A DNA stretch of 64,000 nucleotides from an uncultured delta proteobacterium (GTDB taxonomy: Bacteria; Myxococcota_A; Polyangia; Polyangiales; Polyangiaceae): the NCBI GenBank assembly GCA_963716725.1, contig CAVQUB010000013.1, forward strand, positions 320,001 to 384,000, read 5' to 3'. Positions within the stretch are counted from its first letter, which is position 1, and each line of letters starts with the position of its first letter. Both the position numbers and the translations under genes were made by a program. Below the pieces are notes generated by a model that worked only from the letters and a program-made list of their open reading frames with translations, searched no databases and was not told where the DNA came from. This document shows, one piece after another, positions 5,448 to 64,000 of the stretch.

Positions 5448-5477
5448 CCTCCCCGTGGTAGCCTCGGAGCGGCTGCC

Positions 5478-6872: not shown

Positions 6873-9191
6873 CTTTGCTGGGAAAACCGCTGCCCCACGA
6901 GAGCGCCCGGGAGCACGTCACCGGCGCCGCGCTCTACACCGACGATCTCGCCGGCCGCTTTGCCGGGCTGCTGCACGCCTGGCCCGTGACCGCCCCGCAC
7001 GCCCACGCCCGGGTGATCTCCGTCGAAACCGGCGACGCGCTGACGATCCCGGGCGTCGTCCGGGTGCTGACCGCCGAGGACGTGCCGGGAGAAAACCAAC
7101 TCGGCGTGGCCCAGGCCGACGAGCCGCTGTTTCCGTCGGAGGTCATGTTTCACGGCCAAGCCGTGGCGTGGGTGCTCGCCGAGAGCGAAGAGGCCGCGCG
7201 GCTCGGGGCGCTGGCTGTCGAGGTCGACTACGAAGCGCTGCCCGCGGTCCTCGGCTTCGAAGAAGCGCTCGAAGCCGGTGAGTTCCTGACCGAGGAGCTC
7301 CGCTTGGCTCGGGGCGACGCCAAGGCCGCCCTCGAAGCTGCGCCGCGCCGGCTCTCGGGGGAGCTGCTCGTGGGCGGACAGGAGCACTTCTACCTCGAGA
7401 CGCAGGCGGCGCTGGCCCACGTCGACGAGCACGGCCAGGTGTTCGTTCACTCGTCGACGCAGCACCCCACCGAGACCCAGGAGATCGTCGCGCGACGTGC
7501 TCGGCGCTGCACAAACACGCAGGTCACCGTGCAGTGCCTGCGCATGGGCGGCGCCTTCGGCGGCAAGGAGGTCGCAAGCCAACGCCTGGGCGGCCGTCGC
7601 CGCGCTCGGGCGCCGCCTGACCGGACGCCCGGTGCGCGTGCGGCTCAACCGCGCTCAGGACATGACGCATGACCGGCAAGCGGCACCGCTTCCTCGGTCG
7701 CTGTCGAGGTCGGCTTCGACGACGAGGGCGCGCTGCTCGCCCTGCGCATGCGAGCTCTTCGCCGACGGCGGCTGGAGCCTCGACCTCTCCGAGCCGATCC
7801 TCTACCGCGCGCTGTTCCACGTCGACAACGCCTACTGCATCCCCAACGTCGCGCGTCACGGGCCGCGTCGTGCGCACGCAACAAGACCTCGCAGACCGCC
7901 TTCCGCGGCTTCGGCGGCCCGCAGGGCATGCTCGTGATCGAGGAGATCATCGGACCGCATCGCGCGCACGCGCTGGCGCTCGACGCCGCATGACGGTGCG
8001 CGAGCGCAACTTCTACCGCGAAGGCGACACCACCCCCTACGGCACAGGCGGTGCGCGACGCCGAGCGCATTCCGCGCATCTGGCGCGAGCTGGTCGCATC
8101 GAGCAGCTTCAGCGAGCGCGTGGCGGCGAGATCGCCGACGTCCAACGCGACGCCACGCCGCACCGCAAGCGCGGCCTCGCCATCACGCCGGTGAAGTTCG
8201 GCATCTCGTTCACCACTTCGTTCTTCAACCAGGCCGGCGCGCTGGTGCTCGATCTACACGGACGGCACCGTGCAGATGAACCACGGCGGCACCGAGATGG
8301 GCCAGGGGCTGCACACGAAGATGCTGCAGATCGCCGGCGCACGCGCTCGGCGTGCCGCTCTCGAGCCGTGCGCCTGATGCCGACCAGCACCGACAAGGTG
8401 CCCAACACCTCGGCGACGGCGGCGTCGAGCGGCTCCGATCTGAACGGCGCCGCGGTGAAGGACGCCTGCGAAACGCTGCGCGCTCGCTTGGCCGCGGTCG
8501 CTGCCCGCGAGCTCGGCACGAGCGACGACCAGATCGTGTTCGACGACGGCAAGGTCTTCAGCAAGTCCGCCCCCGAGCGCTGCCTGACCTTCTCGGAGCT
8601 CACGCACCGGCATACCTCGAGCGGGTCCCGCTCTTCGCCACCGGCTTCTACCGCACCCCGGACATCCACTTCGACAAGGCTACGGGCAGCGGCAAGCCCT
8701 TCCACTACTTCGCCTACGGCGCCGCCGTGACCGAGGTCGAGGTCGACGGCTTCACCGGCATGTACGAGATCCGCCGCGTCGACATCCTGCACGACGTCGG
8801 CGACTCGCTGTCGCCGCTGGTCGATCGCGGCCAGATCGAGGGCGGCTTCGTTCAGGGCCTGGGCTGGCTGACCCTCGAGGAGCTGGTGTGGGCCCCGGAC
8901 GGCCGCTTCACCACGCCCAACGCTTCCACCTACAAGCTGCCGGGGCTCGGCGAGTGTCCACCGGTGTTCGAGGTCACGCTGCTCGAGCGGGCTGCGGATC
9001 CCGACGTCATCCACGGCAGCAAGGCCGTGGGCGAGCCGCCGCTCATGCTGGCGATCAGCGCGCGGGAGGCGCTGCGGCACGCCGTCGCCGCCTTCGGGGG
9101 GGATCACTCGGGCATCGTCGAGCTCGGATCCCCGGCGACGCCCGAGGCGGTGTTCTGGGCCATCGAGAAGCTCCGCGGGAAGTCCGGCTGA
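6869..9191 (+). pseudogene. xdhB: Xanthine dehydrogenase molybdopterin-binding subunit, broken by many frameshifts between about 7570 and 8620 (pseudogene or consensus error)
   Basis: Conserved XdhB blocks lie in alternating frames: [83 protein letters not shown]. Confidence 0.9.
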
Positions 9192-18861: not shown

Positions 18862-19677
18862 TCAGCGGAAGACGGTGTAGAGGTACACGATCGGGGCGAC
18901 GATCAAGAGTGCGTCGACTCGGTCGAGCAGGCCGCCGTGTCCCGGGACTATCCAGCCGCTGTCTTTGATACCCGTCGAGCGCTTGAGCAACGACTCGACC
19001 AGGTCGCCCATCTGCCCAAGCGCTCCGCCGAAGAGGGCGAGCGGCAAGGCGTGAACGAGCGGAATGTCCGGCAGGTACCACAGGCTCGCGACCACGGCGC
19101 CCAGACACGCACCCGCCAGCGAACCGTAGAAGCCCTCGCGGGTCTTCTTGGGGCTGATCGTCTCGTACAGCTTGGTCTTGCCCAAGAAGCGCCCGGCGAA
19201 GTAGCCGCCGGTGTCGGCCATCCAGGCGAAGGTCAGAGTCATCACCACCCAGCGTGGTCCATCGTCGCCCATGTCCCGGCGGAGCAGGGCGATGGTGCAG
19301 AACAGCGCCCCGACGTAGATGGGCGCAGCGACGTTCGCCATGATTCGCAGCGCCGCGGTGTCGATCTGACCGAGGCGCCAGAGCGGCAACAGCACGCCGA
19401 TGATGGGCACCGCCAGGAACACCGCGAGCAAAACGCGCTGATCCTTCGTTGCAAAGTACACGGCGGCACTCACCGCGAGGGTGAGCAGAACCCCGATGCC
19501 TTGGGCGACTCGATCTCCCGGATGCGTCATGGCGAAGAGCTCGCTGGCACCGACTGCCGTGGCGCACGCCACCAAGACGTAGAACCCCCAGGCCGGGCCC
19601 ACGAAGAGCAACGCCAACAGGAGCGGCACGAACACGACGGCCGTCAGGAGGCGTAGGGTGAGGTTGCTCTTGGCCAA
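18862..19677 (-). CDS. cdsA: Phosphatidate cytidylyltransferase
   Basis: DTGGYFAG...ISPKKTREG...GDLVESLLKRSTGIKDSG.IVPGHGGLLDRVD signature; multi-TM. Confidence 0.95.
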   Translation of the reverse strand: MAKSNLTLRLLTAVVFVPLLLALLFVGPAWGFYVLVACATAVGASELFAMTHPGDRVAQGIGVLLTLAVSAAVYFATKDQRVLLAVFLAVPIIGVLLPLWRLGQIDTAALRIMANVAAPIYVGALFCTIALLRRDMGDDGPRWVVMTLTFAWMADTGGYFAGRFLGKTKLYETISPKKTREGFYGSLAGACLGAVVASLWYLPDIPLVHALPLALFGGALGQMGDLVESLLKRSTGIKDSGWIVPGHGGLLDRVDALLIVAPIVYLYTVFR

Positions 19678-19772
19678 GCGGGCCTTGGTTAGAGCATTTT
19701 GCTCCGGGAGGGAACCACGAGCGGCCTGGTGCCCCCAGCTGACGCTTCGGTGGCCGTGCTACGACCTGAACC

Positions 19773-20441
19773 TTGGCCGCCAGCCGAAACGCAAGCCGGC
19801 GACGGGGTGCCCGAATCGCTCTCGTGCTGCTGGTGCTCGCGCTGCTCCTCACCGCGCACCGCACGGGCATCCTGGCCGAGTTCGCCGATCCCCCACGGGT
19901 CAAGCGGACGCTGATCGCGCTGGGCCCGTGGGGCTACCTGGCCTTCATCGCGGCCTACACCTTCCTGCAGCCCTTCGGAGTCCCCGGAACGGTGTTTGTC
20001 GTCGCGGCTCCGCTGATTTGGCCTTGGCCGGTGGCTTTTGCGCTGTCGATGATCGGAACGATGGCGGCCAGCGTCGTCGGTTTCTCATTCGCGCGCTTCG
20101 TGGCGCGGGACACCGTCGCCTCCCTGATCCCCGAGCGCTTCCGGCGCTACGACGAGGCGCTCGCACGCCGCGCTTTCGCTACGGTCTTCGTCCTCAGGTT
20201 GGTATTTTGGATGCCCCAACTCCTGCACGCGTTCTTCGGGATCTCGAAGGTGCGTTTCGCGACACACTTCTGGGCGTCGCTGCTCGGCTACGCGCTACCG
20301 CTCTTCCTGGTGAGCTACTTCGGCGAGCGGCTGTTCGACTGGGCAAAGGCCGCCCCCGCTTCAGTCTGGCTCGGCATGGGCCTGGGCGCCGCGCTGATCG
20401 CGCTCGTCACCTGGCTGGTACGCCGCCGCCCAGCCGGCTAG
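19773..20441 (+). CDS. TVP38/TMEM64 (DedA/VTT) family membrane protein
   Basis: Multi-TM; PFGVPG, FARFVARD, VFVLRLVFWMP and GISKVRF pattern. Confidence 0.85.
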   Translation: MAASRNASRRRGARIALVLLVLALLLTAHRTGILAEFADPPRVKRTLIALGPWGYLAFIAAYTFLQPFGVPGTVFVVAAPLIWPWPVAFALSMIGTMAASVVGFSFARFVARDTVASLIPERFRRYDEALARRAFATVFVLRLVFWMPQLLHAFFGISKVRFATHFWASLLGYALPLFLVSYFGERLFDWAKAAPASVWLGMGLGAALIALVTWLVRRRPAG

Positions 20442-52732: not shown

Positions 52733-54562
52733 ATGAGAACTCTGACTCGGGGATGGTTGGCGGGCGCCGGGGCGCTCGCGTTGGTGGCCGCAGGCGCGCT
52801 TTCGTGCAGCGATGGCGAAGAGGGAGGCGAGGCTGCGACCAGCTCATCGGGAGGCGGCGCGGGCGGGAGCGGCGGCGCGGCGGGAGCGGCCGGGCTCGCG
52901 GGGGCCGGCGCGTCGACCGGTCAAGTCTGCGGCAACGGGAAGCTCGAGGGCGAGGAGGAGTGCGACGACGGCAATTTCGTCGGGGCCGACGGCTGCGAAA
53001 ACAACTGCGACGTCACCTGCAAGTCGGCAGGCGACTGCGATGACGCGGATCCCTGCACGGGAACCGAGGCCTGCGGCGCCAACCACGCCTGCAGCGCCGG
53101 CACTCCGCTGTCGGACGGTACGGCCTGCGGGGAGGGGCTGGTCTGCGTGAACGGCAACTGCGCCACGCCTCAATGCGGCGACGGCCAGAAGCAGATCGGC
53201 GAGGAGTGCGACGACGGCAACGCCCTGAGTGGAGACGGCTGCGACTTCTGCAAATTCTCGTGCGTGTCGACGGACGCCCTTCGAGATTGCACGAAGAGCG
53301 GTGACTCCTGCGCCGGAACGAACGCCTGTGACGACGTCAAGCACACCTGCACCGCCGGCGCGAAGCTCAGCGAGGGCGCGGCCTGTGGCGCCGGCACCGG
53401 CAAGTGCCTGGGCGGCATCTGCACGCTCCTCAGCTGCGGCAACGCGCAACTCGACTCCGGCGAAGAGTGCGACCCACCGGCAGCCGGCACTTGCAGCGCG
53501 CAATGCCAGAAGGTCGTCACGCCCGTCTGCGGCAATGGGACCATCGAGCCACCGGAGCACTGCGACGATCAGGCCACGGCAAACTTGGACGGCTGCGGCG
53601 CAAAGTGCGCCTACGAGATGGTGCTCCGCATGATCGATCTCGACATTCGCGGCGGCCCGGCCCCGAGCTTCTGCAGCGTCACCAAGAACCAGCTGGGGAA
53701 TGTGGCGCTGACACCGACCGCGCTCAGCACCCTGAACAACGATTTGCAGAAGGGCATCGACAGCGGCGGCACGAACATCATGCTGCAGCTGCTCGGCCTC
53801 GACGAACTCACCGGCACTGCAGATGCCTCCATCGAGATCGGCGTGCTCTCGGGCGAACTCGACAAGGCCAAGGGCACGTGGCCAATCGACGGCACGAACC
53901 CCATCGACTGGTGGTTCTCCATCGACCAAAAGGGGGTCGACGCCAGCGGGCTTCCGACGGGCAAGATCGGCGCAGGATCGATCCTCGCGAAGGTGCTCAC
54001 CGCGGGGCCCAGCACCATCGACCTCGCGCTGACGCTCGGTGGCAGCGCCGCGGTGCTCGGAATGCGTGACGCAAAATTGCGCGCTGCCGCCAGCGGCGCA
54101 CCGGACGTCCCCGCACCTCCGCCGGCCTCCCTCGCCGCAGGGCTCGCCGTATTCGGCGAGCTGCTGTCGAACCAAAGTAGCCAGGGCTTGTGCGGCAACG
54201 TGACCGTGAGCTCGCTCGCCAAGATCCCGATCCCCGAGACGCTCACGGTCGGCTTCGCCGCCTGCCAGGAGTGCCCCGGATCCAAGAAGTACAAGTTCTG
54301 CGGCAAGGACCAGCCCGTCAGCGACAGCTGCAATTCGTTGCTCGATGCGCTGGTCGGCGGTTGCAAGGGCTTCAACTGCGCCCTGACCACCGTCAACCCC
54401 ACGCAACCCGACGTGGCCAAGCCCGCGGGAAAGCTCACGCTGCTCGAGAATCAAGGGGCGCTGAACAAGATCCCGAGCGCCGACGCGACCGACAACCTCG
54501 ACGCGTACTCGGCGTTCCTGTCGTTCCGCGCGCGCCGCGCGCACATCACCGCGAAGCACTGA
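52733..54562 (+). CDS. Myxobacterial cysteine-rich repeat (DUF4215-like) lipoprotein
   Basis: Lipobox ALSC; repeated CGNG..E..EECDDGN...DGC motifs. Confidence 0.88.
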   Translation: MRTLTRGWLAGAGALALVAAGALSCSDGEEGGEAATSSSGGGAGGSGGAAGAAGLAGAGASTGQVCGNGKLEGEEECDDGNFVGADGCENNCDVTCKSAGDCDDADPCTGTEACGANHACSAGTPLSDGTACGEGLVCVNGNCATPQCGDGQKQIGEECDDGNALSGDGCDFCKFSCVSTDALRDCTKSGDSCAGTNACDDVKHTCTAGAKLSEGAACGAGTGKCLGGICTLLSCGNAQLDSGEECDPPAAGTCSAQCQKVVTPVCGNGTIEPPEHCDDQATANLDGCGAKCAYEMVLRMIDLDIRGGPAPSFCSVTKNQLGNVALTPTALSTLNNDLQKGIDSGGTNIMLQLLGLDELTGTADASIEIGVLSGELDKAKGTWPIDGTNPIDWWFSIDQKGVDASGLPTGKIGAGSILAKVLTAGPSTIDLALTLGGSAAVLGMRDAKLRAAASGAPDVPAPPPASLAAGLAVFGELLSNQSSQGLCGNVTVSSLAKIPIPETLTVGFAACQECPGSKKYKFCGKDQPVSDSCNSLLDALVGGCKGFNCALTTVNPTQPDVAKPAGKLTLLENQGALNKIPSADATDNLDAYSAFLSFRARRAHITAKH

Positions 54563-54577
54563 GCGACTGCGGGGCGT

Positions 54578-54952
54578 CTAACCGTGCTCGAGACGCGCAC
54601 GCAGCTCCGCGGCCTCGCTCACGAGTTCGTGGGGTCGGGCGTGATCGAGCAGGGCGCAGGCCCGCTTCTTGTGCTGCTTGGCTCCGCGGCTGTCGCCCTT
54701 TGCTTCGAGCACGATGGCTCGATGCTCGAGCATTAGCGCAGCGAGCACGACCTTGTCACCGCTGCCGATCACCAGCGCGGCGGACCGAGCGTCGAACAGC
54801 TCGATGCCCCGCGGCAGAGCGAGGGCCTGCTCGGCCAAAGTGAGCTCCGCCTCGGCCTCGCCCGGCTGCCCCTCGCGTGCGAGCTTGGCCGCGCGCGCCA
54901 GGGCCTGAGTGAGCTGCTCGATCAGCCGACCGATGTAGTCCTGGCGAAGCAC
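54578..54952 (-). CDS. Small helical hypothetical protein
   Basis: N-terminal RQDYIGRLIEQL; GTG start; codon bias. Confidence 0.65.
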   Translation of the reverse strand: MLRQDYIGRLIEQLTQALARAAKLAREGQPGEAEAELTLAEQALALPRGIELFDARSAALVIGSGDKVVLAALMLEHRAIVLEAKGDSRGAKQHKKRACALLDHARPHELVSEAAELRARLEHG

Positions 54953-55024
54953 GCCCCCAGCGTAGCTCAGTCTCGGCGGCCCGGTCGGGCCCTCGACCCG
55001 ACGGCCGGTCTCGGCCTAAGCTCG

Positions 55025-55747
55025 GTGGGCGTGGGGCATTTTGTCGTGAATTCGCCCTGGCTCGGCCGCTTCGCGGGCGCGCTGCTGCTGCTCGGCGTCA
55101 CCTCGTCCGCGGGGGCGGATCTGGCGCCACCGCCTGGCGCCAAAATCACGCTCGAGCTCAGCGTGGACGGACAGTCGTCGCTCTCTCACCTGCGCTTCTT
55201 CGTGACCAACTGCAAAGAGCCCGTCGAAGAGTCGGTGCTGGAGGCGGACAAGCCACTGATCTGCAACCCGGAGCGCGGACCCGTGCGCGTCATCGGCCTC
55301 AAGGAGGGCGATCTGATCGATCTCTTCGCGCTCATCCGTCGGGACGCCGGGCGCGCAGAGTCGGCGATCTTCCTCTCGCAGAAGGTCAAGACCTGCGGGG
55401 AGATCGAAGAGCGGGATCGCAACTTCTCCCAGGTGTCGCAGGTCACCTTGGTGCAGGCTCGATACGCCATCGCGCCTCATGGCAAGGACGGCTGCAAGCT
55501 GACGCGCATCTCGGCCACCACCAAGACCAAGGCCGATCTCCAAGCAGCGAGCAAACCGACGCCACCCACGCCCACTCCGCCGGCCTCCTCCGTGGCGCCC
55601 CCCGCGCCGACGGCGGCCCAGAAGTCCGACTGCGACTGCCGCGCAGCGCCCGGGGGTCGCGGCGATCTCGGGCTCGGCTGGCTGACCTCGATGTTGGTGC
55701 TCGCGATCACTCGAAGTCGTGCCGCGCGCCCGCGTCAGACGCGCTGA
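55025..55747 (+). CDS. Secreted protein with MYXO-CTERM-like sorting tail
   Basis: Signal peptide ending AGA-DLAPPP; Pro linker; DCDCRAAPG, hydrophobic helix and Arg-rich end. Start uncertain. Confidence 0.7.
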   Translation: MGVGHFVVNSPWLGRFAGALLLLGVTSSAGADLAPPPGAKITLELSVDGQSSLSHLRFFVTNCKEPVEESVLEADKPLICNPERGPVRVIGLKEGDLIDLFALIRRDAGRAESAIFLSQKVKTCGEIEERDRNFSQVSQVTLVQARYAIAPHGKDGCKLTRISATTKTKADLQAASKPTPPTPTPPASSVAPPAPTAAQKSDCDCRAAPGGRGDLGLGWLTSMLVLAITRSRAARPRQTR

Positions 55748-55894
55748 ATCGTCGCCGAGATCAGCATCCACGCCGCCAACGCGAGCAGCACCCAACCGAC
55801 GATGCGCACCCCTCTCGTGATGTGCTGTCGGCCGAAGCGCTCGCGGTGGCGTTCAGCCAGCGCTGCCACGCCCACGAACCAGATCACGGCCATC

Positions 55895-56653
55895 CTACCC
55901 GGCGCTGATCCGCACGACGCCGTCGTCGATGCGTTGCTGGAGCGCAACCTGAGTCGCTCGGCGCGCCGCACCGAGCGCGCGAACCCCGTCTTGGAGACGG
56001 AAGGGTCCCGAACGAGGCAAGCCGTCGAGCACCAACGCCACGAGACCCGGGCGCTTCGGCGGCACCAGGCTCTTGTCGCCCTTGCCGCGCCAGGGCGAGC
56101 GCGACGCGAGGTGATGGTGGAGCACGCGCCGACCGCTGGGCACACCCTCGAGACCGGGGCGGTCCAGGATGCCGCCATCGAGCAAGGGGCGCCCGCCGTG
56201 CCAGGTGGGCTGAAACAACAAAGGCACGGTGCAGCTCGCTTGGATCGCGGGTGCGATCTTTCCGTGGTTGAGCACCCGCGTCGATCGTGAGTACAGATCG
56301 AAGACCGACACGGCCAGCGGCACGCGGCACCCCGAGAAGTGTTCGACCCGCAGCAGGGAGTCGATGCGCGCGCGAAAGCGTCGACCGCGAAGCAACCCCA
56401 GCCCCGGCCAGGGGTCCCAGAAGTCCTCCCGCCGGAGACGCGTGAGCTCGACTTCGAGGGCCGGCGCGTCGATGCCCGAAGCCCAGAGTCCGGCCACCAG
56501 CGCACCGGCGCTCGAGCCCGCGACCTCTGCGGGAAGGACGCCAGCCTCCTCGAGAGCCGCGAGCATGCCGGTGTGCGCAAAGAATCCGAAGAATCCGCTG
56601 GACATCGCCAGCGAAAACGGACCTTCGGCGAGCCAGTCGCGGAGCGTGATCAT
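55895..56653 (-). CDS. Patatin-like phospholipase
   Basis: SSGFFGFFAH, GSSAG nucleophile, ASCTVP, LDGG. Confidence 0.9.
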   Translation of the reverse strand: MITLRDWLAEGPFSLAMSSGFFGFFAHTGMLAALEEAGVLPAEVAGSSAGALVAGLWASGIDAPALEVELTRLRREDFWDPWPGLGLLRGRRFRARIDSLLRVEHFSGCRVPLAVSVFDLYSRSTRVLNHGKIAPAIQASCTVPLLFQPTWHGGRPLLDGGILDRPGLEGVPSGRRVLHHHLASRSPWRGKGDKSLVPPKRPGLVALVLDGLPRSGPFRLQDGVRALGAARRATQVALQQRIDDGVVRISAG

Positions 56654-56744
56654 GCGCGGGAGTGGACTACACTAGCCACTCAATCGCGCTGAGGCCACGT
56701 CGTCGGCTCGACCCTGCGCGGCTCGCAGCAGAACCGAGCTTTCG

Positions 56745-57200
56745 ATGCTGAAGAAACTGCTGTTCACCACCTCGCCGCGCAACCTCAATCTCGCGCTGCT
56801 CTTGCTCCGCCTCGGCTTCGGCGCCTCGATGGCGCTTGCACATGGTCTCGGCAAGGTGAAAGACCTCGCTGGTTTCACGGCGGGCGTGGCCGCTCGCGGG
56901 GTTCCGATTCCGGAGCTCCTGGGTCCGGCGGCCGCGCTCAGCGAGCTGGTTGGTGGCCTCTTGCTCGCGCTCGGCTTGCTCACACGCCCCGCAGCCGGGT
57001 TCGTGCTGGCAACCATGGCGGTGGCAGCCTTCCACGTGCATGGCAACGACCCCTTCGCGCGCAAGGAGCTCGCGCTCGCCCACGGCCTGGTCGCTCTGGC
57101 CATCGCCATCGGAGGGCCAGGACGCTTCAGCTTGGACGCACGGCTATTCGGTCAACCCGGCTTGCCGTCGACCCGCGGCGCCAGCAGCATCGGCACGTAG
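56745..57200 (+). CDS. DoxX family membrane protein
   Basis: LLLRL...HGLGK, ELVGGLLLALGLLTR.AA, GPGRFSLD. Confidence 0.9.
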   Translation: MLKKLLFTTSPRNLNLALLLLRLGFGASMALAHGLGKVKDLAGFTAGVAARGVPIPELLGPAAALSELVGGLLLALGLLTRPAAGFVLATMAVAAFHVHGNDPFARKELALAHGLVALAIAIGGPGRFSLDARLFGQPGLPSTRGASSIGT

Positions 57201-58366
57201 ACGACCAGATAGGCGAGGAACGCCAGAGCGAAGAGCACACCCGCGGTCGTCATCGAGTGCCGGTACGCGACGTTGCCCCCGAGCGGACCGAACACCCGCA
57301 GCAGCGCCGCCACGACCACTGCACCGAAGGCGACGCTGATCACGGGCTTCACCGCCAGCATGCGCCCGGTGTGCCCCAGGGACACTCTCGCCATCATGCC
57401 GAGGGTCAGCGAGCCGATGGCGCCGGCGGTGAACGCATGGAGGGCTGCGCTCGCGGTGAACGCAGGAGTGACCGCCATGCTGGCGCGCAGCAGAAAGCCC
57501 AGGGCGATGAACCCGTGCCCCAGGTGCAAGATCCACAGCAGCGGACTGCGGAAGGTGTGCAGCGTGCCCCAGGTCAGACTCCGGGCCAGCACCAAAATGC
57601 CGGCCAGCGCGGCCAGCGCGCCCACGATTCGTTCGTCGAACGAGGCGAGATCCGCCAGCGCCGCCGCGACGACCCCGGCGATCGCCGCGGTATCGAGCCG
57701 AGGCTGATTGCGAATGGTCTGCTGATCCGTCGCGTTCCTGGTGAACATCGGCACGACGCGGGCCGTCATCACCACGATCATGGCGATGATCACATAGGTC
57801 GCGAGCCACGCCCCTTTGCGCGACCCCTCAGCCCAGATGCCGAGCGATCCGAGATGCATGGCTAGGTTGCCCAAGAAGAGCAGCGAAAGCATGACGACGA
57901 ACTGATAGTTTCGTTGATTCCGCGCGGTGACGATCGGCCTCGCGCACGCCCATGCCAAGAGTGGGAGAAAGGCGAGGTCGACCGCGGCGGGCACGAAGCG
58001 CGGCAAGCGATCCGCCACCAGCGGTGCGACGCGGCCGGCGAGCCACACCGCTGCCAGAACCGCCAAGAGCCTTCCAGTGGCGGTCTCCCGCGAGGTCCAG
58101 TTGCCGATCGCGGTGAGCAGAAACCCAGCGATCACCGCCAGGGCGAAGCCAAAGAGCATCTCGTGCGCGTGCCAGAAGGTAGCGCCGAAATACGCTCCCG
58201 GATTCATCCCGCCCCGCAGCGCGAGCACCCAGATCGGCATCACGACCGCGGCCTGAGCCGCTGCGAGCAAGAAGAATGGGCGAAAGCCCTTGGCAAGGAT
58301 TGCGGGCTTGACCAGCGGAGTTGCCGGCCCCGACTGGAGGAGGGAACGTTGCACCACGGGCCGCAT
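57152..58366 (-). CDS. nnrS: NnrS family protein
   Basis: GFRPFFL, WHAHEMLFGF, GFLLTA..NW, RVVPMFT, LHA, GMMARVSLGHTGR. Confidence 0.95.
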   Translation of the reverse strand: MRPVVQRSLLQSGPATPLVKPAILAKGFRPFFLLAAAQAAVVMPIWVLALRGGMNPGAYFGATFWHAHEMLFGFALAVIAGFLLTAIGNWTSRETATGRLLAVLAAVWLAGRVAPLVADRLPRFVPAAVDLAFLPLLAWACARPIVTARNQRNYQFVVMLSLLFLGNLAMHLGSLGIWAEGSRKGAWLATYVIIAMIVVMTARVVPMFTRNATDQQTIRNQPRLDTAAIAGVVAAALADLASFDERIVGALAALAGILVLARSLTWGTLHTFRSPLLWILHLGHGFIALGFLLRASMAVTPAFTASAALHAFTAGAIGSLTLGMMARVSLGHTGRMLAVKPVISVAFGAVVVAALLRVFGPLGGNVAYRHSMTTAGVLFALAFLAYLVVYVPMLLAPRVDGKPG

Positions 58367-58411
58367 GTAGCGCCAGAGCCTGGCCGAGCCAAGCCCCCTG
58401 CGGGAAGACGC

Positions 58412-60280
58412 TCAGTCCATCACCCGGAGCCGCAGCTTGCCATCGACCGACGACTCCTTGGGGGTGACCACGGAGAGCGGGTCATCGGACAGCGGAAGTC
58501 GTTGGTTTTTGGCGTACACCGGGTGCTTGCCGTGCTTGCGGGACCACTCGGCGACGCTGGCGGTGCGGTACATCTTCTCGACGACCTGGCGCCAGCCGAC
58601 CCCGGTGTTGTAGGCGCAAAACGGAATCTCCCCCAGCTGGGTGCCGTAGGGGATGATGCACATCTCGGTGCGGCGGAAGTCGTAGTTGAAGAGATCTTGG
58701 AAGTGCATGCCGGCGACGAACAAGAAGCGCCAATCGAACGCGCTCGCGTCGCCCTCGGTGGCGCCGACGCGGCCACCCCGCGCGCCCATTTGGCTCAGCA
58801 CCTGACGCACGAGGGTCGACAACTCGAAACCCTCCGGTGCGCGCTCGGGACGGAAGTTGCGCAGCAGCGCCAGTCCCACCTCCGCCAACGTGCGCTTGGG
58901 TCCGAGCCCGGCGTCGGCCACCAAGACCAAGTCGCGGAGCAGGCGCGGGAGATCCATGATCTCTGCTACGGGCACCATCTGCTTGGTGCGCTTGTTGACC
59001 AACAGCACGGTGCCGATGCCGCAGTCGGGGTGGCAGCCGCATTTGAGTGAGCCAAACTCGGCGTCGGCGCCCAGCGTCAGGTCGACCACGTCGCTGAAGG
59101 GATTCATGGCCGAGAGGGGGAACCAATCGCGGAGCGGCTCGGTCGCGCCGAGTTGCTCTTGGAGATCTCGGGCGAGATGACTCAGGGTGTAGCGCTGTGC
59201 GCGTCGTGTCGCGTCGTCGACGTCTTCGTCGCGTCCGGTGAAGCTGATGGGCTGGAACGACACGACCGTCACTTTGTCGGCATTTTCGATGGCAAAGCGC
59301 ACGATGCGCCCGACCTCTGCGTGGTTGACCCCGCGCACGACGGTCACCACCAACACCACGTCGATGCCGGCGGCCGCGAGGTTCTCGATGGCGCGCAGCT
59401 TCACGTCGTAGAGGTTGTCGATCTTGCGATGCGAGTTTGCTTCGTTGCCGACACCGTCGAACTGGAGGTAGGCGAGCCGGAGACCTGCGGCCTTGGCCTG
59501 CCGGCAGAACTCCGGATCTTGCGCGAAGCGGATGCCGTTGGTAGCGCACTGCACGCAAAAATATCCGAGGTCTCGCGCGTAGCGGACGCTGTCGATGAAC
59601 GCTGGGTGCAGCGTGGGCTCGCCGCCTGAAAACTGCACGCTGAGCTGACGCTTTGGCTTCACCGTGAGCGCGTCGTCCAATATGCGGCGCACTTCGTCGA
59701 AGGAGAGCTCGTGCACGTAGCCAACCTGGTTGGCGTCCATGAAGCACGGCTCGCACATCATGTTGCAGCGGTTGGTGAGGTCGACAGTGAGCACCGCGCC
59801 GCGACCGTACTTCACACTCGAGGTGCCGTGGTCACGCAGGCTGGTCTTGGGCGCCAGGTAGTCGCGCCCGGGAAACAAGCTCTCGATGCGCCTCAGGAAC
59901 TCGGCGTCTACGCTCAGCACCTCTTCGAAGCGCCCGTGCGCGGGGCACGTCTTGACCATCCAGACCTCACCGTCGCGCTCGACGATGTCGGCGGGGATCT
60001 CGCCGGGATGGTTGTGCAGGACGTCCAGGGGCCTCTGGCCCGAGACAACCGCCTTGCGCACCTCTCGGACGCAGGTCGGGCAGAGCGAGTCGGTGCGGCG
60101 GGGGAAACCGAGCGCAGGGAACGAGCGCTCGCCGGCGCGGATCAACGGCGCGGGGGCCCAGTTCGGCGTGAGCGAGTCGCCGCGCGCGCGGGCGTTGTAA
60201 GCGAGGACCAAGGGCCAGAGTCGGTTCGCGGCGGCGGCGGCCAGGGTCGCGGCGCGACGACTGAAAGTTGGAGCGGGCAT
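58412..60280 (-). CDS. Radical SAM protein, tetraether lipid synthase (Tes/GDGT-MAS)-like
   Basis: N-terminal SLCPTC...KTCPAHG; RS motif TNRCNMMCEPCF; QFSGGEPT, TNGIR, YLQFDG; C-terminal CGCHPDCG, GMHFQD..NYD..R..MCII.Y, IPFCAYN. Confidence 0.85.
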   Translation of the reverse strand: MPAPTFSRRAATLAAAAANRLWPLVLAYNARARGDSLTPNWAPAPLIRAGERSFPALGFPRRTDSLCPTCVREVRKAVVSGQRPLDVLHNHPGEIPADIVERDGEVWMVKTCPAHGRFEEVLSVDAEFLRRIESLFPGRDYLAPKTSLRDHGTSSVKYGRGAVLTVDLTNRCNMMCEPCFMDANQVGYVHELSFDEVRRILDDALTVKPKRQLSVQFSGGEPTLHPAFIDSVRYARDLGYFCVQCATNGIRFAQDPEFCRQAKAAGLRLAYLQFDGVGNEANSHRKIDNLYDVKLRAIENLAAAGIDVVLVVTVVRGVNHAEVGRIVRFAIENADKVTVVSFQPISFTGRDEDVDDATRRAQRYTLSHLARDLQEQLGATEPLRDWFPLSAMNPFSDVVDLTLGADAEFGSLKCGCHPDCGIGTVLLVNKRTKQMVPVAEIMDLPRLLRDLVLVADAGLGPKRTLAEVGLALLRNFRPERAPEGFELSTLVRQVLSQMGARGGRVGATEGDASAFDWRFLFVAGMHFQDLFNYDFRRTEMCIIPYGTQLGEIPFCAYNTGVGWRQVVEKMYRTASVAEWSRKHGKHPVYAKNQRLPLSDDPLSVVTPKESSVDGKLRLRVMD

Positions 60281-60431
60281 CGAGCGGCGAACAATAGCAG
60301 ACGGGGCAGCGGCGGCGGGAGGACCGCGCCGGGTCGGAGCGCGCGGCTGGATCCCGCGGCTGATCCGCGCGGCCGGTTCCACATCGCCGGTGATTCCGAT
60401 AGCCTGCACGTGCCCAGTTCAAGGAGGGACC

Positions 60432-60857
60432 ATGTTCGACCAGGTCGAGCGGCAGGAGCTCAGCGCGGCGATCGCGGTGGCCGAAGAGGGACACCGCGGT
60501 GAGGTGCGCGTCCACCTCGAGCGCCGCTGTCCCGGACGCAACTCCCCCAGCGAGCGCGCCGAAGAGCTATTCACCGCATTCCGGATGGACCGCACGCGAG
60601 AGGACACCGCGGTGTTGCTCTACGTATCGTTCGACGATGGGCGTTCCGCCGTGCACGCGGGGTCCGGTGTGCGGCAGTCGGCAACACCCGACTACTGGCG
60701 GACCGTCGCCGAGGAGATCGAGCGCGGCTTTGCCATCGACGAACCGCTCGCCGGCCTGTGCGCGGCCATCGAACAGATCGGTGAGATGCTGCGCGTGTAC
60801 GCCCCAGGGGAAGACCTGGCGGGCAACGAGTTGCCGGACGCGATCACGATGTCGTGA
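60432..60857 (+). CDS. TPM-domain (DUF477/DUF5130-like) protein
   Basis: AI..AE....GEVRVHLE, AVLLYV, C-terminal NELPD; AGGAGG RBS. Confidence 0.85.
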   Translation: MFDQVERQELSAAIAVAEEGHRGEVRVHLERRCPGRNSPSERAEELFTAFRMDRTREDTAVLLYVSFDDGRSAVHAGSGVRQSATPDYWRTVAEEIERGFAIDEPLAGLCAAIEQIGEMLRVYAPGEDLAGNELPDAITMS

Positions 60858-60929
60858 GGCGCGGATCCGCCGCTCGACCATTCACCTCCAGCACCCCCGC
60901 GGAGCGATTGCGGGTAGAGTCGCGCCCGC

Positions 60930-62075
60930 ATGTCGGCCGGACTCGCTCACCCGCTCCTGATCGTGGGCGACGTGCACCTGCGCCGCACGCCGCGGCCCGC
61001 GGTGGACGAAGCCCTGGCGAAACTGGTGGAGAGTCATCCCGACCACGAGATCGTCCTGAACGGCGACAGCTTCGATCTTTCGACCGATCCGCCGGAGCAC
61101 CCACCGTGCGAGAGCGTTGCGAGAATCCTTGCGACCAACTCGCTCTCGCGGAACGCGCTTTCCGCTCACCTCAGCCGTGGCGGCCAGCTGACCCTGGTCG
61201 CTGGAAACCACGACGCTGCGCTGAGCTCGCCGGAGGTTACCGATGTACTTCGCTCCAAGCTCGGCGCTGGGCTCTCGGTAGCGCCCTGGTTCATTCGCCG
61301 AGGCGCGGTGCACATCGAGCACGGTCACCTCTACGATCCCGACAACGCGCCTTCTCATCCCCTGGCGCGCTGGAGCCTCGCGACGGAGCCCCTGGGCGTG
61401 GCCCTCACTCGACGCTTCGTCGCGGCGAGCGGGGTGTGGGAGTTCGCGCACGGAAACGAGACGACTCCCCTGGCTGGGCTCCTCGGCACGATCCGTCGCC
61501 ACGGCGCTCGGGCTCCGCTCAAGATTTGGCGCTACTACTCGGTTGCCACGGAGCTGACCTTCGAGGCTGGGCGTCAGCCAGGCATCGATGAGGAGCGTGC
61601 CCGCGGCGCGCGGGCGGTAGCAGAATTGGCCCGCGAGGTCGGCGTCGATGCCGACGCTCTGCACGCGCTCGCCCTGGCGTCGTGGGGCGCCACGCACCAT
61701 CGGCGCGGCGCGACCTTCCAGCGATTGTACCTGGATCGCTCCCTCGCCACGGCCACTCTGCTCGCCGCGGCCGGAGTGGCGCTCGCCGGCTCACCGGTGG
61801 GCGCCGGCGCCGCCCTGCTTTCCGCCAGCTATCTGGGGTGGTCCATCTCGCGCGGGACGAATCGATACCGCGGGCTCGTGACTCGCCGCATGGACGACGC
61901 CGCCGCGCAGATCGCCGAACTCACCCATGCCTCGGTGGTCGTGCTCGGGCACACACACCAAGTCGCTGACCGAGACGGCTACCTGAACCCCGGCTCCTTC
62001 GCCTACCCAACCGGCTCCGAGCGCCGCTTCGTGCGCGTCGTGCAGGACGGGAGTCCCGAACTCGGCGCAATCTGA
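60930..62075 (+). CDS. Calcineurin-like metallophosphoesterase with C-terminal hydrophobic segments
   Basis: GDVHL, NGDSFD, GNHD, EHGH, GHTH, YLNPGSF. Confidence 0.88.
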   Translation: MSAGLAHPLLIVGDVHLRRTPRPAVDEALAKLVESHPDHEIVLNGDSFDLSTDPPEHPPCESVARILATNSLSRNALSAHLSRGGQLTLVAGNHDAALSSPEVTDVLRSKLGAGLSVAPWFIRRGAVHIEHGHLYDPDNAPSHPLARWSLATEPLGVALTRRFVAASGVWEFAHGNETTPLAGLLGTIRRHGARAPLKIWRYYSVATELTFEAGRQPGIDEERARGARAVAELAREVGVDADALHALALASWGATHHRRGATFQRLYLDRSLATATLLAAAGVALAGSPVGAGAALLSASYLGWSISRGTNRYRGLVTRRMDDAAAQIAELTHASVVVLGHTHQVADRDGYLNPGSFAYPTGSERRFVRVVQDGSPELGAI

Positions 62076-62129
62076 GCGGCGAAGGTCGTGAGCCACGAGA
62101 TCGAGCCCGACGACCAGCCCTGGCCGAGC

Positions 62130-62594
62130 TCAGACTCCGATGCCCTCCGCCCCGAGCTCGATGAACAAGCCTTGGGCTTCGGCGTAGGGCGCGCCGTCCG
62201 CGGCGAGCAAGTGCCCGCGGGTGTGCACCTTGCGGCCTTCGACCCGGTCGATGAACGCTTCGATCAAGACGTCGCTCCCGAGGGGCAGCATGCGGCGAAA
62301 ACTGACCTCTATCTTTGCGGCGAGCACCCGGTGGCCGTTCAGCCACCCGACCTTGCCGATGGCGTCGTCGAGCACCGACGCCATGCTGCCGCCGTGCGCG
62401 TGACCGGGCGGACCTTCACACCACGGCCCGAACCACACGCGCCCGACCAGCGCGTCGTCGTTGTCGCGGCGGAAGTAAGCGACGCGCATGCGCAGGTCGC
62501 CTTCTTGCCCATGAACCCAGGACCGACCGGATTTGGCGGTGATCGGCGAGAGCGGAGACCAGCCGGTTTCGGCGACGACGGGCGGCGGCTGCAT
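62130..62594 (-). CDS. PaaI/hotdog-fold thioesterase
   Basis: EGPPGHAHGG.MASVLDD motif. Confidence 0.88.
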   Translation of the reverse strand: MQPPPVVAETGWSPLSPITAKSGRSWVHGQEGDLRMRVAYFRRDNDDALVGRVWFGPWCEGPPGHAHGGSMASVLDDAIGKVGWLNGHRVLAAKIEVSFRRMLPLGSDVLIEAFIDRVEGRKVHTRGHLLAADGAPYAEAQGLFIELGAEGIGV

Positions 62595-62601
62595 TCGAAA
62601 C

Positions 62602-63144
62602 CTAGCGTGCTCCCGCGCTGTTCCAACCGCCGTCGAGCTCGGCAACACCTTCGTGGACGTGCAGGCGCCGCTTCACGTCGAGGCCTCCGGAGAAGCCGCC
62701 GAGGGATCCGTCGGAGGCCACCACCCGGTGGCAGGGCACCAAGATGGGCAGCGGGTTTTTGGCCATTGCGGCGCCGACCGCCCGCGCAGCGCCCGGCTTG
62801 CCCACCCGCTTGGCGAGGTCGCCGTAGGTCGTGAGCTGACCGAAGCTCACGCGCATGAGCTGCCGGAGCACTCGGCCCTGGAACTCGCCGGTCAAGCGGA
62901 AGTCCGTGGCCACGCCGAAGGTGCGACGGCGACCGCGGAAGTACTCCCCGATCTCGGTCGTGGCGCGCAGGCGCGCGCGCCTTTCGAGCACGACGTCATC
63001 ACCGCCAGCCGCTCGCAAGCGTTCGAGCAGGGCAGCCGCATCGGGCTCTCCGAACTCGATGGCAACGACGCCGCGATCACTCTCGACAACGGTGAGCGGG
63101 CCCACGGGTGAGCGCAAGGTGGCGTAGCGGAATTTGACAGCCAT
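62602..63144 (-). CDS. ogt: Methylated-DNA-protein-cysteine methyltransferase
   Basis: SPVG, YF.G, TYGDLA, ARAVG.A...NP.PILVPCHRV. Confidence 0.95.
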   Translation of the reverse strand: MAVKFRYATLRSPVGPLTVVESDRGVVAIEFGEPDAAALLERLRAAGGDDVVLERRARLRATTEIGEYFRGRRRTFGVATDFRLTGEFQGRVLRQLMRVSFGQLTTYGDLAKRVGKPGAARAVGAAMAKNPLPILVPCHRVVASDGSLGGFSGGLDVKRRLHVHEGVAELDGGWNSAGAR

Positions 63145-63195
63145 TGCGCCGAGGATTGTCCGGGCAGAGCGCGCTGCCGTCAATGCGGCGCCCGC

Positions 63196-63882
63196 TCAGG
63201 GTTTGATCACCTGAGTGCCCTTGGGCGGCTTGAAATCGAACTCGCCGGCCGGAACCTTCTCGTTCACGGTGGGCGTCACGAAGTCGAATCGATTGCGGTT
63301 GCCCTGAGCGTCGAGCAGGAGCACGCGGCGAACCTGATAGGTCCCCGAATCGACGTAGAGCAGGATCTTCTGGTACGCGGGCGTCGCCTCTTTGGGCACA
63401 CCCTCGAGCACGTAGCCGCCTTCGAATTGCAAGTCCTTCGCGTTCAGCTTGCGCAGCTTGAAGCTCTTCTTGAGGTTGCCGCCACCCACCAAGAACGCGA
63501 GCGCGGCCGGGTACTGGCTCTTGCCCATGGGCTGCTCGTACATTTGCTTGTTCTCGGCCTCGTAGATCTTGATGATCTTGCCGTCCGACACCACGCGGTT
63601 GCCATTGTTGGTGTAGCGCCAGCTCATCCGACCTGGCTTCTCGAAGATCACCGACCCGGCGCTGTCTTTGCGCTTGTTGTAGGCCTTCACCTGGTAGCGC
63701 TGCTTGAAACCCGCCTTGAAGTTCTTGGTCTTGTCGTAGAACTTCTGGACGCTCTCGGCGACCTCATTGGCGCTCGGTTCGCTCTTCGCGACCGGTTTGG
63801 CCTGGGCGCTGGCGGTGGTGCTCAGCCAGAGCGGCGCCACCAAGGTGATCGAGAGGGAGAGGAGAGCGTGCCGGAGTTTCAT
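63196..63882 (-). CDS. lolA: Outer-membrane lipoprotein carrier protein LolA
   Basis: Signal peptide; F.Q....GSV.FEKPGRMSWRY, VVSDG, F.FKPPKG. Confidence 0.9.
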   Translation of the reverse strand: MKLRHALLSLSITLVAPLWLSTTASAQAKPVAKSEPSANEVAESVQKFYDKTKNFKAGFKQRYQVKAYNKRKDSAGSVIFEKPGRMSWRYTNNGNRVVSDGKIIKIYEAENKQMYEQPMGKSQYPAALAFLVGGGNLKKSFKLRKLNAKDLQFEGGYVLEGVPKEATPAYQKILLYVDSGTYQVRRVLLLDAQGNRNRFDFVTPTVNEKVPAGEFDFKPPKGTQVIKP

Positions 63883-64000
63883 GGTCGACGGGTCCTGGCG
63901 GATCTAACAAACAACGCGGGGCGGTATTCGCAGCTTGCGGCTGCTGGTGCAGGATCAGACGAGGGAGGCGCCTCGAAGATTCGCCGGAGCCGGCCTTTTA

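Follow-up and report, generated by a model that had tools for sequence, protein, structure and literature searches.

A Tes-like radical SAM protein encoded in a Polyangiaceae genome represents a separate bacterial clade predicted to lack the N-terminal [4Fe-4S] cluster

The DNA analysed here is a stretch of 64,000 nucleotides (nt) from an uncultured delta proteobacterium of the family Polyangiaceae (assembly GCA_963716725.1, contig CAVQUB010000013.1, positions 320,001 to 384,000), referred to below as the window. Its minus strand carries an intact frame for a 622-amino-acid (aa) radical S-adenosylmethionine (SAM) protein that resembles the tetraether lipid synthase Tes, or GDGT-MAS (GDGT, glycerol dialkyl glycerol tetraether). 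An earlier note on this DNA, made from the sequence alone, had placed such a gene at 58412..60280 and left its strand unstated; these coordinates do hold a real gene. The stop codon is at 58412-58414 and the ATG at 60280. The longest open reading frame (ORF) is 58412..60409, and the start at 60280 fits the homologues, which begin only a few residues away.

The translated protein, here called the window protein, matches the Pfam families Radical_SAM and Zn_ribbon_HMPTM (Table 1). Its best NCBIfam model is tetraether lipid synthase Tes (NF045702), with 350.7 bits and an E-value (E) of 1.1e-104 over profile positions 2-484 of 486; the equivalog cut-off of this model, 450 bits, is not reached. TrsS (NF045646) is the second-best match, at 228.8 bits against a cut-off of 490, and is confined to residues 94-379, i.e., the zinc ribbon and SAM core. 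In the PDB, residues 94-583 match 7TOL (GDGT-MAS of M. jannaschii) with E 2.2e-74, and the next match is at 1.5e-05. A structure was predicted with AlphaFold2 from a 56-sequence alignment (predicted local distance difference test, pLDDT, 91.6; predicted template modelling score, pTM, 0.92) and used in a Foldseek fold search. 7TOM was found with E 1.4e-40 in an alignment of 546 columns, with template modelling (TM) scores of 0.88 (target) and 0.71 (query). The model superposes on 7TOM and 7TOL over the whole chain, including the C-terminal lipid-pocket domain, whose helical region is predicted with high confidence. MoaA (TM 0.51), SkfB, viperin and others fit the SAM core alone, with TM of about 0.5, and the MoaA GTP 3',8-cyclase models give 56.4-58.6 bits against cut-offs of 231-325. 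The earlier note had considered that the protein might cluster with MoaA. The fold search places it with GDGT-MAS, and it is therefore a Tes-fold protein; a MoaA identity is refuted by the NCBIfam scores, the PDB match and the fold search together. The window protein is a close structural relative of GDGT-MAS/Tes but no canonical Tes.

All motifs named in the earlier note were found, namely CPTC (residues 67-70), CPAH (112-115), CNMMCEPC (172-179), CGCHPDCG (414-421), MHFQD (525-529), CIIPY (541-545) and IPFCAYN (552-558). The rubredoxin-like ligands are Cys67, Cys70, Cys112 and His115, with about 22 additional residues between the knuckles, and the CX3CX2C motif of the SAM cluster (Cys172, Cys176, Cys179) lies at 59744-59767. 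Cys420, Cys541, Cys555 and Met525 align with the ligands of the C-terminal cluster of GDGT-MAS ([4Fe-4S]C), and Tyr545 with its Tyr459. Two additional cysteines, Cys414 and Cys416, form part of CGCHPDCG beside a cluster ligand and are specific to the clade described below. Helices 444-457 and 487-498 are amphipathic by a weak check, being the two among five helices that scored higher than 95% of shuffled sequences. The motif for the N-terminal auxiliary cluster ([4Fe-4S]N) is missing, as the earlier note had said: there is no cysteine between His115 and Cys172, and the linker carries a conserved DHG-[ST]-S-[ST] ... YGRG stretch instead of cluster cysteines. The N-terminal extension has a helix predicted at residues 6-31 (blocks with pLDDT of 84-97) and shows no transmembrane-like hydrophobicity (mean 0.05). 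No sigma-70-like site was found in 56600-60900, which includes the 109-nt intergenic region, and no Rfam family in 54000-64000.

Table 1. The Tes-like gene, the parts of its product and the adjoining intergenic region in the window.
Feature	Position	Strand	Basis
Tes-like radical SAM gene	58412..60280	-	ORF, Pfam, NCBIfam, PDB match, predicted model
N-terminal extension, residues 1-59, clade-specific	60104..60280	-	alignment, model
Rubredoxin-like zinc-ribbon domain, residues 60-122	59915..60103	-	PF23545 (Zn_ribbon_HMPTM), E 9.1e-17
Linker, residues 116-171, in place of the [4Fe-4S]N domain of GDGT-MAS; Cys-free	59768..59935	-	alignment
Radical SAM core, residues 168-330	59291..59779	-	PF04055 (Radical_SAM), E 4.8e-21
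C-terminal auxiliary-cluster and lipid-pocket domain, residues 410-560	58601..59053	-	alignment, model
Divergent intergenic region, 109 nt	60281..60389	.	between the Tes-like gene and the TPM-domain gene (60390-60857, +)

Relatives were collected in two ways. An exhaustive protein search gave 9560 matches at E <=0.001, with 534 at <=1e-30, and from 150 cluster representatives 42 that appear full-length were chosen by eye and scored on the Tes hidden Markov model (HMM). All eight representatives that are at least 40% identical to the window protein score under the Tes cut-off (141-414 bits). The 34 that are at most 39% identical include 24 that pass (462.8-730 bits), eight that are below and two without a match at E 1e-40. 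In addition, a scan of one genome per species (GTDB) gave 596 related loci, and the counts given here refer to the best 80 of these, with 51-73% identity. A tree of 106 sequences was built with a quick IQ-TREE run (LG+G4) from the window protein, 75 genome-locus proteins and 5 near and 25 far representatives, 19 of the 25 far ones reaching the Tes cut-off. Thus 30 of the 42 representatives were used for the tree and for the ligand table, and five of the 80 loci gave no ORF of at least 520 aa. Left out were P0128, P0136 and P0142, which are apparently broken or frameshifted, as well as P0225, P0226, P0264, P0245, P0248, P0265, P0214, P0184 and P0205, which are intein-bearing, partial or unmatched. 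The tree separates 81 near from 25 far sequences by a long branch with a Shimodaira-Hasegawa-like approximate likelihood ratio (SH-aLRT) support of 100, with a long-terminal-branch warning on the far side. The same split is seen in the HMM scores and in indel and cysteine characters.

The ligands of the reaction centre are common to both sides of the tree. Rubredoxin-like ligands are present in 81/81 clade members and 24-25 of 25 far sequences, and the SAM-cluster cysteines in 81/81 and 25/25. The C-terminal cysteines Cys420, Cys541 and Cys555 are found in 78, 76 and 77 of the 81, respectively, and each in 25 of 25 on the far side; Met525 is kept in 77/81 and 24/25, and Tyr545 in 76/81 and 21/25. 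The two sides differ in the interval between the rubredoxin His and the first SAM Cys, where three or more cysteines occur in 24/25 far sequences and in 0/81 of the clade (none in 74 rows, one in 7 rows). The additional Cys414 is present in 78/81 versus 0/25, and Cys416 in 78/81 versus 10/25. The clade also has a median of 69 residues ahead of the first rubredoxin Cys (16 on the far side) and a rubredoxin knuckle spacing (C2 to C3) of 43 (21 on the far side). The aligned residues indicate that the clade retains the reaction centre and has lost the N-terminal [4Fe-4S] cluster. Thus the description of a divergent bacterial type without this cluster was correct, and it extends from the window protein to the whole 81-sequence clade. 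It should be noted that P0188, a far-side sequence, scores 584 bits on Tes, above the cut-off, yet is without the N-terminal cluster cysteines; loss of the cluster therefore occurred more than once, and loss alone does not exclude a protein from the Tes family. A further observation concerns the residue next to the cluster-ligating Met. The window protein has the canonical Tes form, MHFQD (58694-58708), and 77/81 clade members have MWFQD, in which Trp replaces His.

Among the best 80 of the 596 loci, 59 are from Acidobacteriota, which bears out the expectation of plentiful acidobacterial relatives; 12 are from Myxococcota, four are labelled Pseudomonadota, two are from Gemmatimonadota, and one each is from Actinomycetota, from Vulcanimicrobiota and unlabelled. 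The Acidobacteriota comprise Acidobacteriaceae (Acidipila rosea DSM 103428 included), Bryobacteraceae, Solibacteraceae, Pyrinomonadaceae, Chloracidobacterium and Vicinamibacterales. These families, taken as Acidobacteriaceae, Bryobacteraceae/Solibacteraceae, Pyrinomonadaceae/Chloracidobacterium and Vicinamibacterales, belong to the acidobacterial subdivisions that make iso-diabolic acid. Nearly all of the Myxococcota loci come from Polyangiaceae; Polyangium fumosum DSM 14668 (L023, 64% identical) and one Labilithrix metagenome-assembled genome (MAG) are represented. The host was rightly called a myxobacterium, as the nearest relatives are Polyangiaceae, with 84% identity to a named NCBI record. 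The best 120 matches to the A. rosea protein are 83-93% identical to it, some 90%-identity clusters have more than 2000 member sequences, and ESM Atlas look-alikes are mostly acidobacterial. In the tree, the window protein groups with 11 rows labelled Myxococcota and one MAG without a label (support 95), and when the tree is rooted on the far side acidobacterial sequences flank this group on both sides. The topology is compatible with gene transfer between Acidobacteriota and Polyangia, in either direction. Five loci with other labels (L063, Bifidobacteriaceae; L028, Betaproteobacteria; L048, 'proteobacterium'; L012, Dongiaceae; L066, Vulcanimicrobiota) have clade members that sit in or beside acidobacterial branches, and these labels may reflect binning errors or recent transfer.

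Published work is cited in this text from extracts of the papers. Zeng et al. 2022 reported 456 bacterial Tes homologues and proposed them as synthases of branched GDGT (brGDGT) (PMC8941075). Compared with MA_1486, the homologues of Koribacter and Solibacter showed 40-42% identity with E 1e-139 to 1e-149, and that of Edaphobacter aggregans 32% with E 4e-61 (PMC8941075). Going by these identities and E-values, the Koribacter and Solibacter proteins look canonical-side and the E. aggregans protein looks like a member of the window clade. The earlier note had treated the acidobacterial homologues as one group; the published values indicate two kinds, of which the window protein resembles the more divergent. 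Halamka et al. 2023 put forward the S. usitatus Tes homologues, one or both, for the coupling reaction, and a 2026 paper cites Chen 2025 as linking a Tes homologue to iso-diabolic tetraesters in Koribacter (PMC13023045). Iso-diabolic acid is produced in subdivisions 1, 3, 4 and 6 of the Acidobacteria, which in the extracts are without an Mss homologue (PMC13159169; PMC13274423). In a 2025 Black Sea study, Tes matches came mainly from Chloroflexota, Planctomycetota, Acidobacteriota, Desulfobacterota and Poribacteria, bacterial Tes function was called unconfirmed, and Myxococcota are named in the extracts via Mss, Ger, ElbD and Agps, not via Tes (PMC11868695). The premise that myxobacteria make iso-branched ether lipids holds for Myxococcus (ElbD and Agps of M. 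xanthus; PMC11868695); for the fatty acids of Polyangiaceae, our literature search gave nothing. An iso-branched fatty acid has an end that is structurally identical to that of a phytanyl chain (PMC8941075).

By analogy with GDGT-MAS, the window protein may catalyse tail-to-tail C-C coupling of bacterial lipid chains to give iso-diabolic-acid-type lipids, the function that we favour over any single alternative, at about even odds. This radical SAM enzyme would reside in the cytoplasm, probably in association with the membrane, and would have the four-part architecture of GDGT-MAS/Tes with one cluster fewer; the cofactors expected from its ligands are a mononuclear rubredoxin-like iron, the SAM-cleaving [4Fe-4S] cluster and one C-terminal [4Fe-4S] cluster. 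GDGT-MAS uses two SAM per C-C bond, abstracts hydrogen from a terminal carbon and stores the first radical as a cluster-sulfur adduct (PMC13459092, PMC9433317). Following the same scheme, each of two glycerolipids would place one of its tails in a hydrophobic tunnel. A hydrogen would be taken from the terminal carbon of one tail by a 5'-deoxyadenosyl radical, and the resulting tail radical would be parked on the C-terminal cluster. A second SAM would then activate the second tail and the two sp3 carbons would be joined. Given a host with abundant iso-branched acyl or alkyl chains, the reaction would yield a membrane-spanning chain of the iso-diabolic-acid type (C30), and electrons would have to reach the active site without the N-terminal cluster. 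We infer the substrate, the product and the choice between ester- and ether-bound lipids from this scheme, and the Cys414/Cys416 pair may conceivably alter ligation of the C-terminal cluster. A wider proposal can be offered only tentatively, and its holding in full is possible rather than likely: the clade, being neither canonical Tes nor Mss, would be the missing iso-diabolic-acid (brGDGT backbone) coupling enzyme of aerobic Acidobacteria; Polyangia would have acquired the gene from an acidobacterial lineage and be hidden producers of brGDGT-type lipids; and surveys filtered at 30% identity would have missed much of the clade.

Several points weigh against the coupling function. We know of no report of membrane-spanning lipids in Polyangiaceae, and Sorangiineae are richer in straight-chain than in iso-branched fatty acids. 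The Tes score is below the equivalog cut-off, the [4Fe-4S]N cysteines are absent and two extra cysteines are present, so that the electron path, and perhaps the chemistry, would be expected to differ from those of GDGT-MAS. In the 80 related loci, the gene has no lipid gene as a conserved neighbour. A clade member is found in a Thermoanaerobaculia MAG (L013), and the sole cultured Thermoanaerobaculia species in Table S21 is scored without iso-diabolic acid (PMC13159169). Published bacterial Tes homologues are described in the extracts as unconfirmed in function, and in the literature searched, which was covered in part, no paper was found that separates the clade without the N-terminal cluster or reports an assay of it. 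Finally, a Tes homologue (identity >=30%, E <=1e-50) was recorded in only 3/14 iso-diabolic-acid producers (PMC13159169). The last of these points can be explained, by an indirect argument, by the identity filter. In a BLASTP comparison of 76 clade proteins with 12 strong canonical representatives, the median identity was 29.6% and 510 of the 912 pairs were under 30%; the 30% filter common in surveys thus cuts through the clade. The Tes-positive producers of Table S21 are A. capsulatum, Koribacter and Luteitalea, with E. aggregans left blank (PMC13159169), and the filter can also explain why E. aggregans is positive in one paper and negative in another.

The strongest competing explanation is that the clade has the fold and the radical machinery of Tes but a different lipid chemistry, and that its product is not an iso-diabolic or brGDGT-type chain. 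Examples would be an intramolecular macrocyclisation of one lipid, a mid-chain cross-link, or the coupling of some other hydrophobic molecule, for instance a hopanoid, carotenoid, quinone tail or alkyl ether. The long, fully supported branch that separates the clade from canonical Tes speaks for such a change, as do the sub-threshold Tes score, the loss of one cluster and the gain of Cys414, Cys416, the N-terminal extension and the rubredoxin insert. With the Tes paralogue MA_1114, macrocyclic archaeol was formed in traces only (PMC8941075), and relatives such as Gms form other C-C links (PMC13459092). The clade is moreover present in Polyangia and Gemmatimonadota. For neither group are we aware of a report of membrane-spanning lipids. 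However, the reaction-centre residues (the Met, the Tyr and the three cysteines of the C-terminal cluster) are retained, the model has high confidence in the helical region of the lipid pocket, and the host range fits the iso-diabolic-acid subdivisions, which are otherwise without a candidate enzyme. A different lipid chemistry is thus an alternative to be taken seriously, though we regard it as rather unlikely.

A second alternative is that the substrate is not a lipid at all, and that the protein acts in a TrsS-like modification of a cofactor or peptide or in pterin methylation. TrsS is indeed the runner-up in NCBIfam, and many Joint Genome Institute (JGI) records of such proteins are named '7,8-dihydro-6-hydroxymethylpterin dimethyltransferase'. 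The TrsS match, however, is far under its cut-off and stops short of the C-terminal half, and the model follows 7TOM through the entire lipid-pocket domain. For MJ0619 itself the pterin annotation is uncorroborated, and the structure speaks against it, the pocket of GDGT-MAS being a long hydrophobic tunnel (PMC9433317). The gene surroundings bear on this alternative as well. Twelve window neighbours were compared by tblastn with the best 80 related loci: NnrS, DoxX, patatin, TPM, 4HBT and Ogt were found in 0/80 each and LolA in 1/80. De novo clustering of 771 ORFs called in these loci gave no family in more than 15/80, the top family being a single-linkage mix of ABC ATPases and response regulators; only lineage-specific housekeeping families were seen, with QueG in seven loci. 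No precursor-peptide or cofactor genes are conserved near the gene, and a non-lipid substrate appears improbable. The patatin gene (55895-56653, -), the 4HBT thioesterase gene (62130-62648, -) and the metallophosphoesterase gene (60930-62075, +) named in the earlier note are present in the window. As lipid context they do not hold up, with patatin and 4HBT in 0/80 and metallophosphoesterase in 5/80 related loci. By both comparisons the gene neighbourhood is uninformative and was rejected as a guide to function.

A third alternative links the window protein to the NnrS membrane protein encoded at 57152-58366 (-; PF05940, E 3.6e-106), for a role in nitric-oxide or metal stress or in the maturation of NnrS. 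The two genes are on the same strand, 45 nt apart with NnrS downstream, no terminator-like site was found between them, and co-transcription is possible in the window. The pairing is local, however: adjacency is seen in 0/80 loci, including those of the closest Polyangiaceae (69-73% identity). Comparison with the syntenic Polyangiaceae locus L004 shows a common upstream metallophosphoesterase gene and a common four-gene run at 44.4-49.7 kilobases (kb; GGDEF, aminotransferase and two more). L004 is without a block at about 49.7-58.4 kb, which may be an insertion or a rearrangement; besides NnrS, patatin and DoxX, this block contains a DUF4215 protein of 609 aa and two unassigned ORFs of 500 and 536 aa. 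On this synteny a partnership with NnrS was rejected and is very improbable. It is hardly credible that the protein is a MoaA-like or otherwise generic radical SAM enzyme, or an inactive copy in decay. The weak MoaA, NirJ and PqqE matches usual for SPASM- or MoaA-type cores are limited to the core, with no score above 79 bits where the cut-offs are 231-650, and the intact frame, the kept metal ligands and orthologues that are 52-84% identical across phyla point to purifying selection.

Some further features of the related loci and of the window may be recorded. In nine loci, mostly Pyrinomonadaceae or Chloracidobacterium (L025, L026, L029, L030, L034, L042, L043, L047 and L061), SurE and protein-isoaspartate methyltransferase genes follow the Tes-like gene, and in eight of the nine a DedA/VTT membrane protein is the third member of the trio. 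The window has its own VTT-domain gene, which adjoins cdsA at 18862-20441, far from the Tes-like gene. The DoxX-family gene (56745-57200, +) is convergent with NnrS, and its product has a weak, sub-threshold match (45 bits, cut-off 80) to HvfX, of copper-binding RiPP (ribosomally synthesised and post-translationally modified peptide) maturation. The 4HBT ORF shares 47 nt (62602-62648) with the Ogt/MGMT ORF (62602-63183, -) on the same strand, and one of the chosen starts is probably too far upstream. In the xanthine-dehydrogenase-type genes at 5448-9191 (+), the molybdopterin-binding subunit is in separate pieces with a gap between them, 6785-7672 (Ald_Xan_dh_C, MoCoBD_1) and 8280-9191 (MoCoBD_2), which could be due to a frameshift, a sequencing error or the ORF filter. 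The other scanned ORFs of the window are ordinary myxobacterial chromosome genes (pilQ/pilM, the xanthine-dehydrogenase-type genes, cdsA and others). None of the ether-lipid genes ElbD, Agps and PlsA/Ger is among the 44 window ORFs scanned.

Bacterial Tes homologues have been in print as brGDGT candidates since 2022, and the central idea of the earlier note is not new. What seems new is the placing of the window protein in a sister clade that has sharp limits and is marked by a defined difference in cofactors, as well as the observation that this clade, rather than canonical Tes, pervades the families of the iso-diabolic-acid subdivisions of Acidobacteria and that Polyangia carry it as a single group among acidobacterial sequences. 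The brGDGTs are widely used proxies of temperature and pH whose source organisms and biosynthetic route are known only in part. In aerobic Acidobacteria, the coupling of iso-C15 tails is not accounted for by Mss, which is absent there according to the extracts (PMC13159169). If the clade does carry out this coupling, Polyangia and Gemmatimonadota would become candidate producers, and the clade would supply a specific gene marker of the potential to form iso-diabolic acid and brGDGT. The clade would also be a natural two-cluster version of Csp3-Csp3 coupling, which would help to define the purpose of the N-terminal cluster of GDGT-MAS. On the wider proposal, abundant soil myxobacteria would be an unrecognised source of brGDGT-type palaeoclimate-proxy lipids. 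If the function differs, this is still a very abundant and highly conserved radical SAM enzyme of soil bacteria.

Among known systems, the TrsS radical SAM (seleno)protein shares with the window protein the zinc ribbon and the SAM core, but the C-terminal half of the window protein does not match the TrsS model. Mss of Thermotoga and Thermoanaerobacter is likewise a radical SAM enzyme that couples two fatty-acid tails, with the same proposed chemistry (PMC13159169, PMC13459092). Its coupling activity was demonstrated by expression in E. coli, and it is found in anaerobes (Sahonero-Canavesi et al. 2022, PMC13159169). Unlike the window protein, it is described by its authors as only remotely related to Tes (PMC13159169). 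The apparently canonical-type bacterial Tes proteins of Ca. Koribacter versatilis and Ca. Solibacter usitatus are, like the clade, candidate tail-coupling enzymes found in Acidobacteria.

The closest comparison is with archaeal GDGT-MAS/Tes (MJ0619, PDB 7TOL/7TOM; MA_1486; Maeo_0574). In MJ0619 the rubredoxin-like site is C9, C12, C33 and H36, [4Fe-4S]N is held by C73, C77 and C80 together with a His, the SAM cluster has a CX3CX2C motif, [4Fe-4S]C has three cysteines and a labile Met439, and Tyr459 is strictly conserved (Lloyd et al. 2022, PMC9433317). GDGT-MAS produced in E. coli had two bacterial phosphatidic acids bound, and its binding of head groups is non-specific (PMC9433317). The window protein shares the overall fold and, by alignment, the rubredoxin-like site of three Cys and one His, the CX3CX2C motif, the three Cys and Met of the C-terminal cluster, and the Tyr. 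It also has an amphipathic helical region where GDGT-MAS has the second lipid pocket. In contrast to the archaeal enzymes, to which it is about 30% identical, it stays under the equivalog cut-off, is without the [4Fe-4S]N cysteines, and has Cys414, Cys416, an extension of about 70 aa and the longer rubredoxin spacing. Since the bacterial host is without archaeol, a lipid substrate different from that of archaeal Tes is to be expected.

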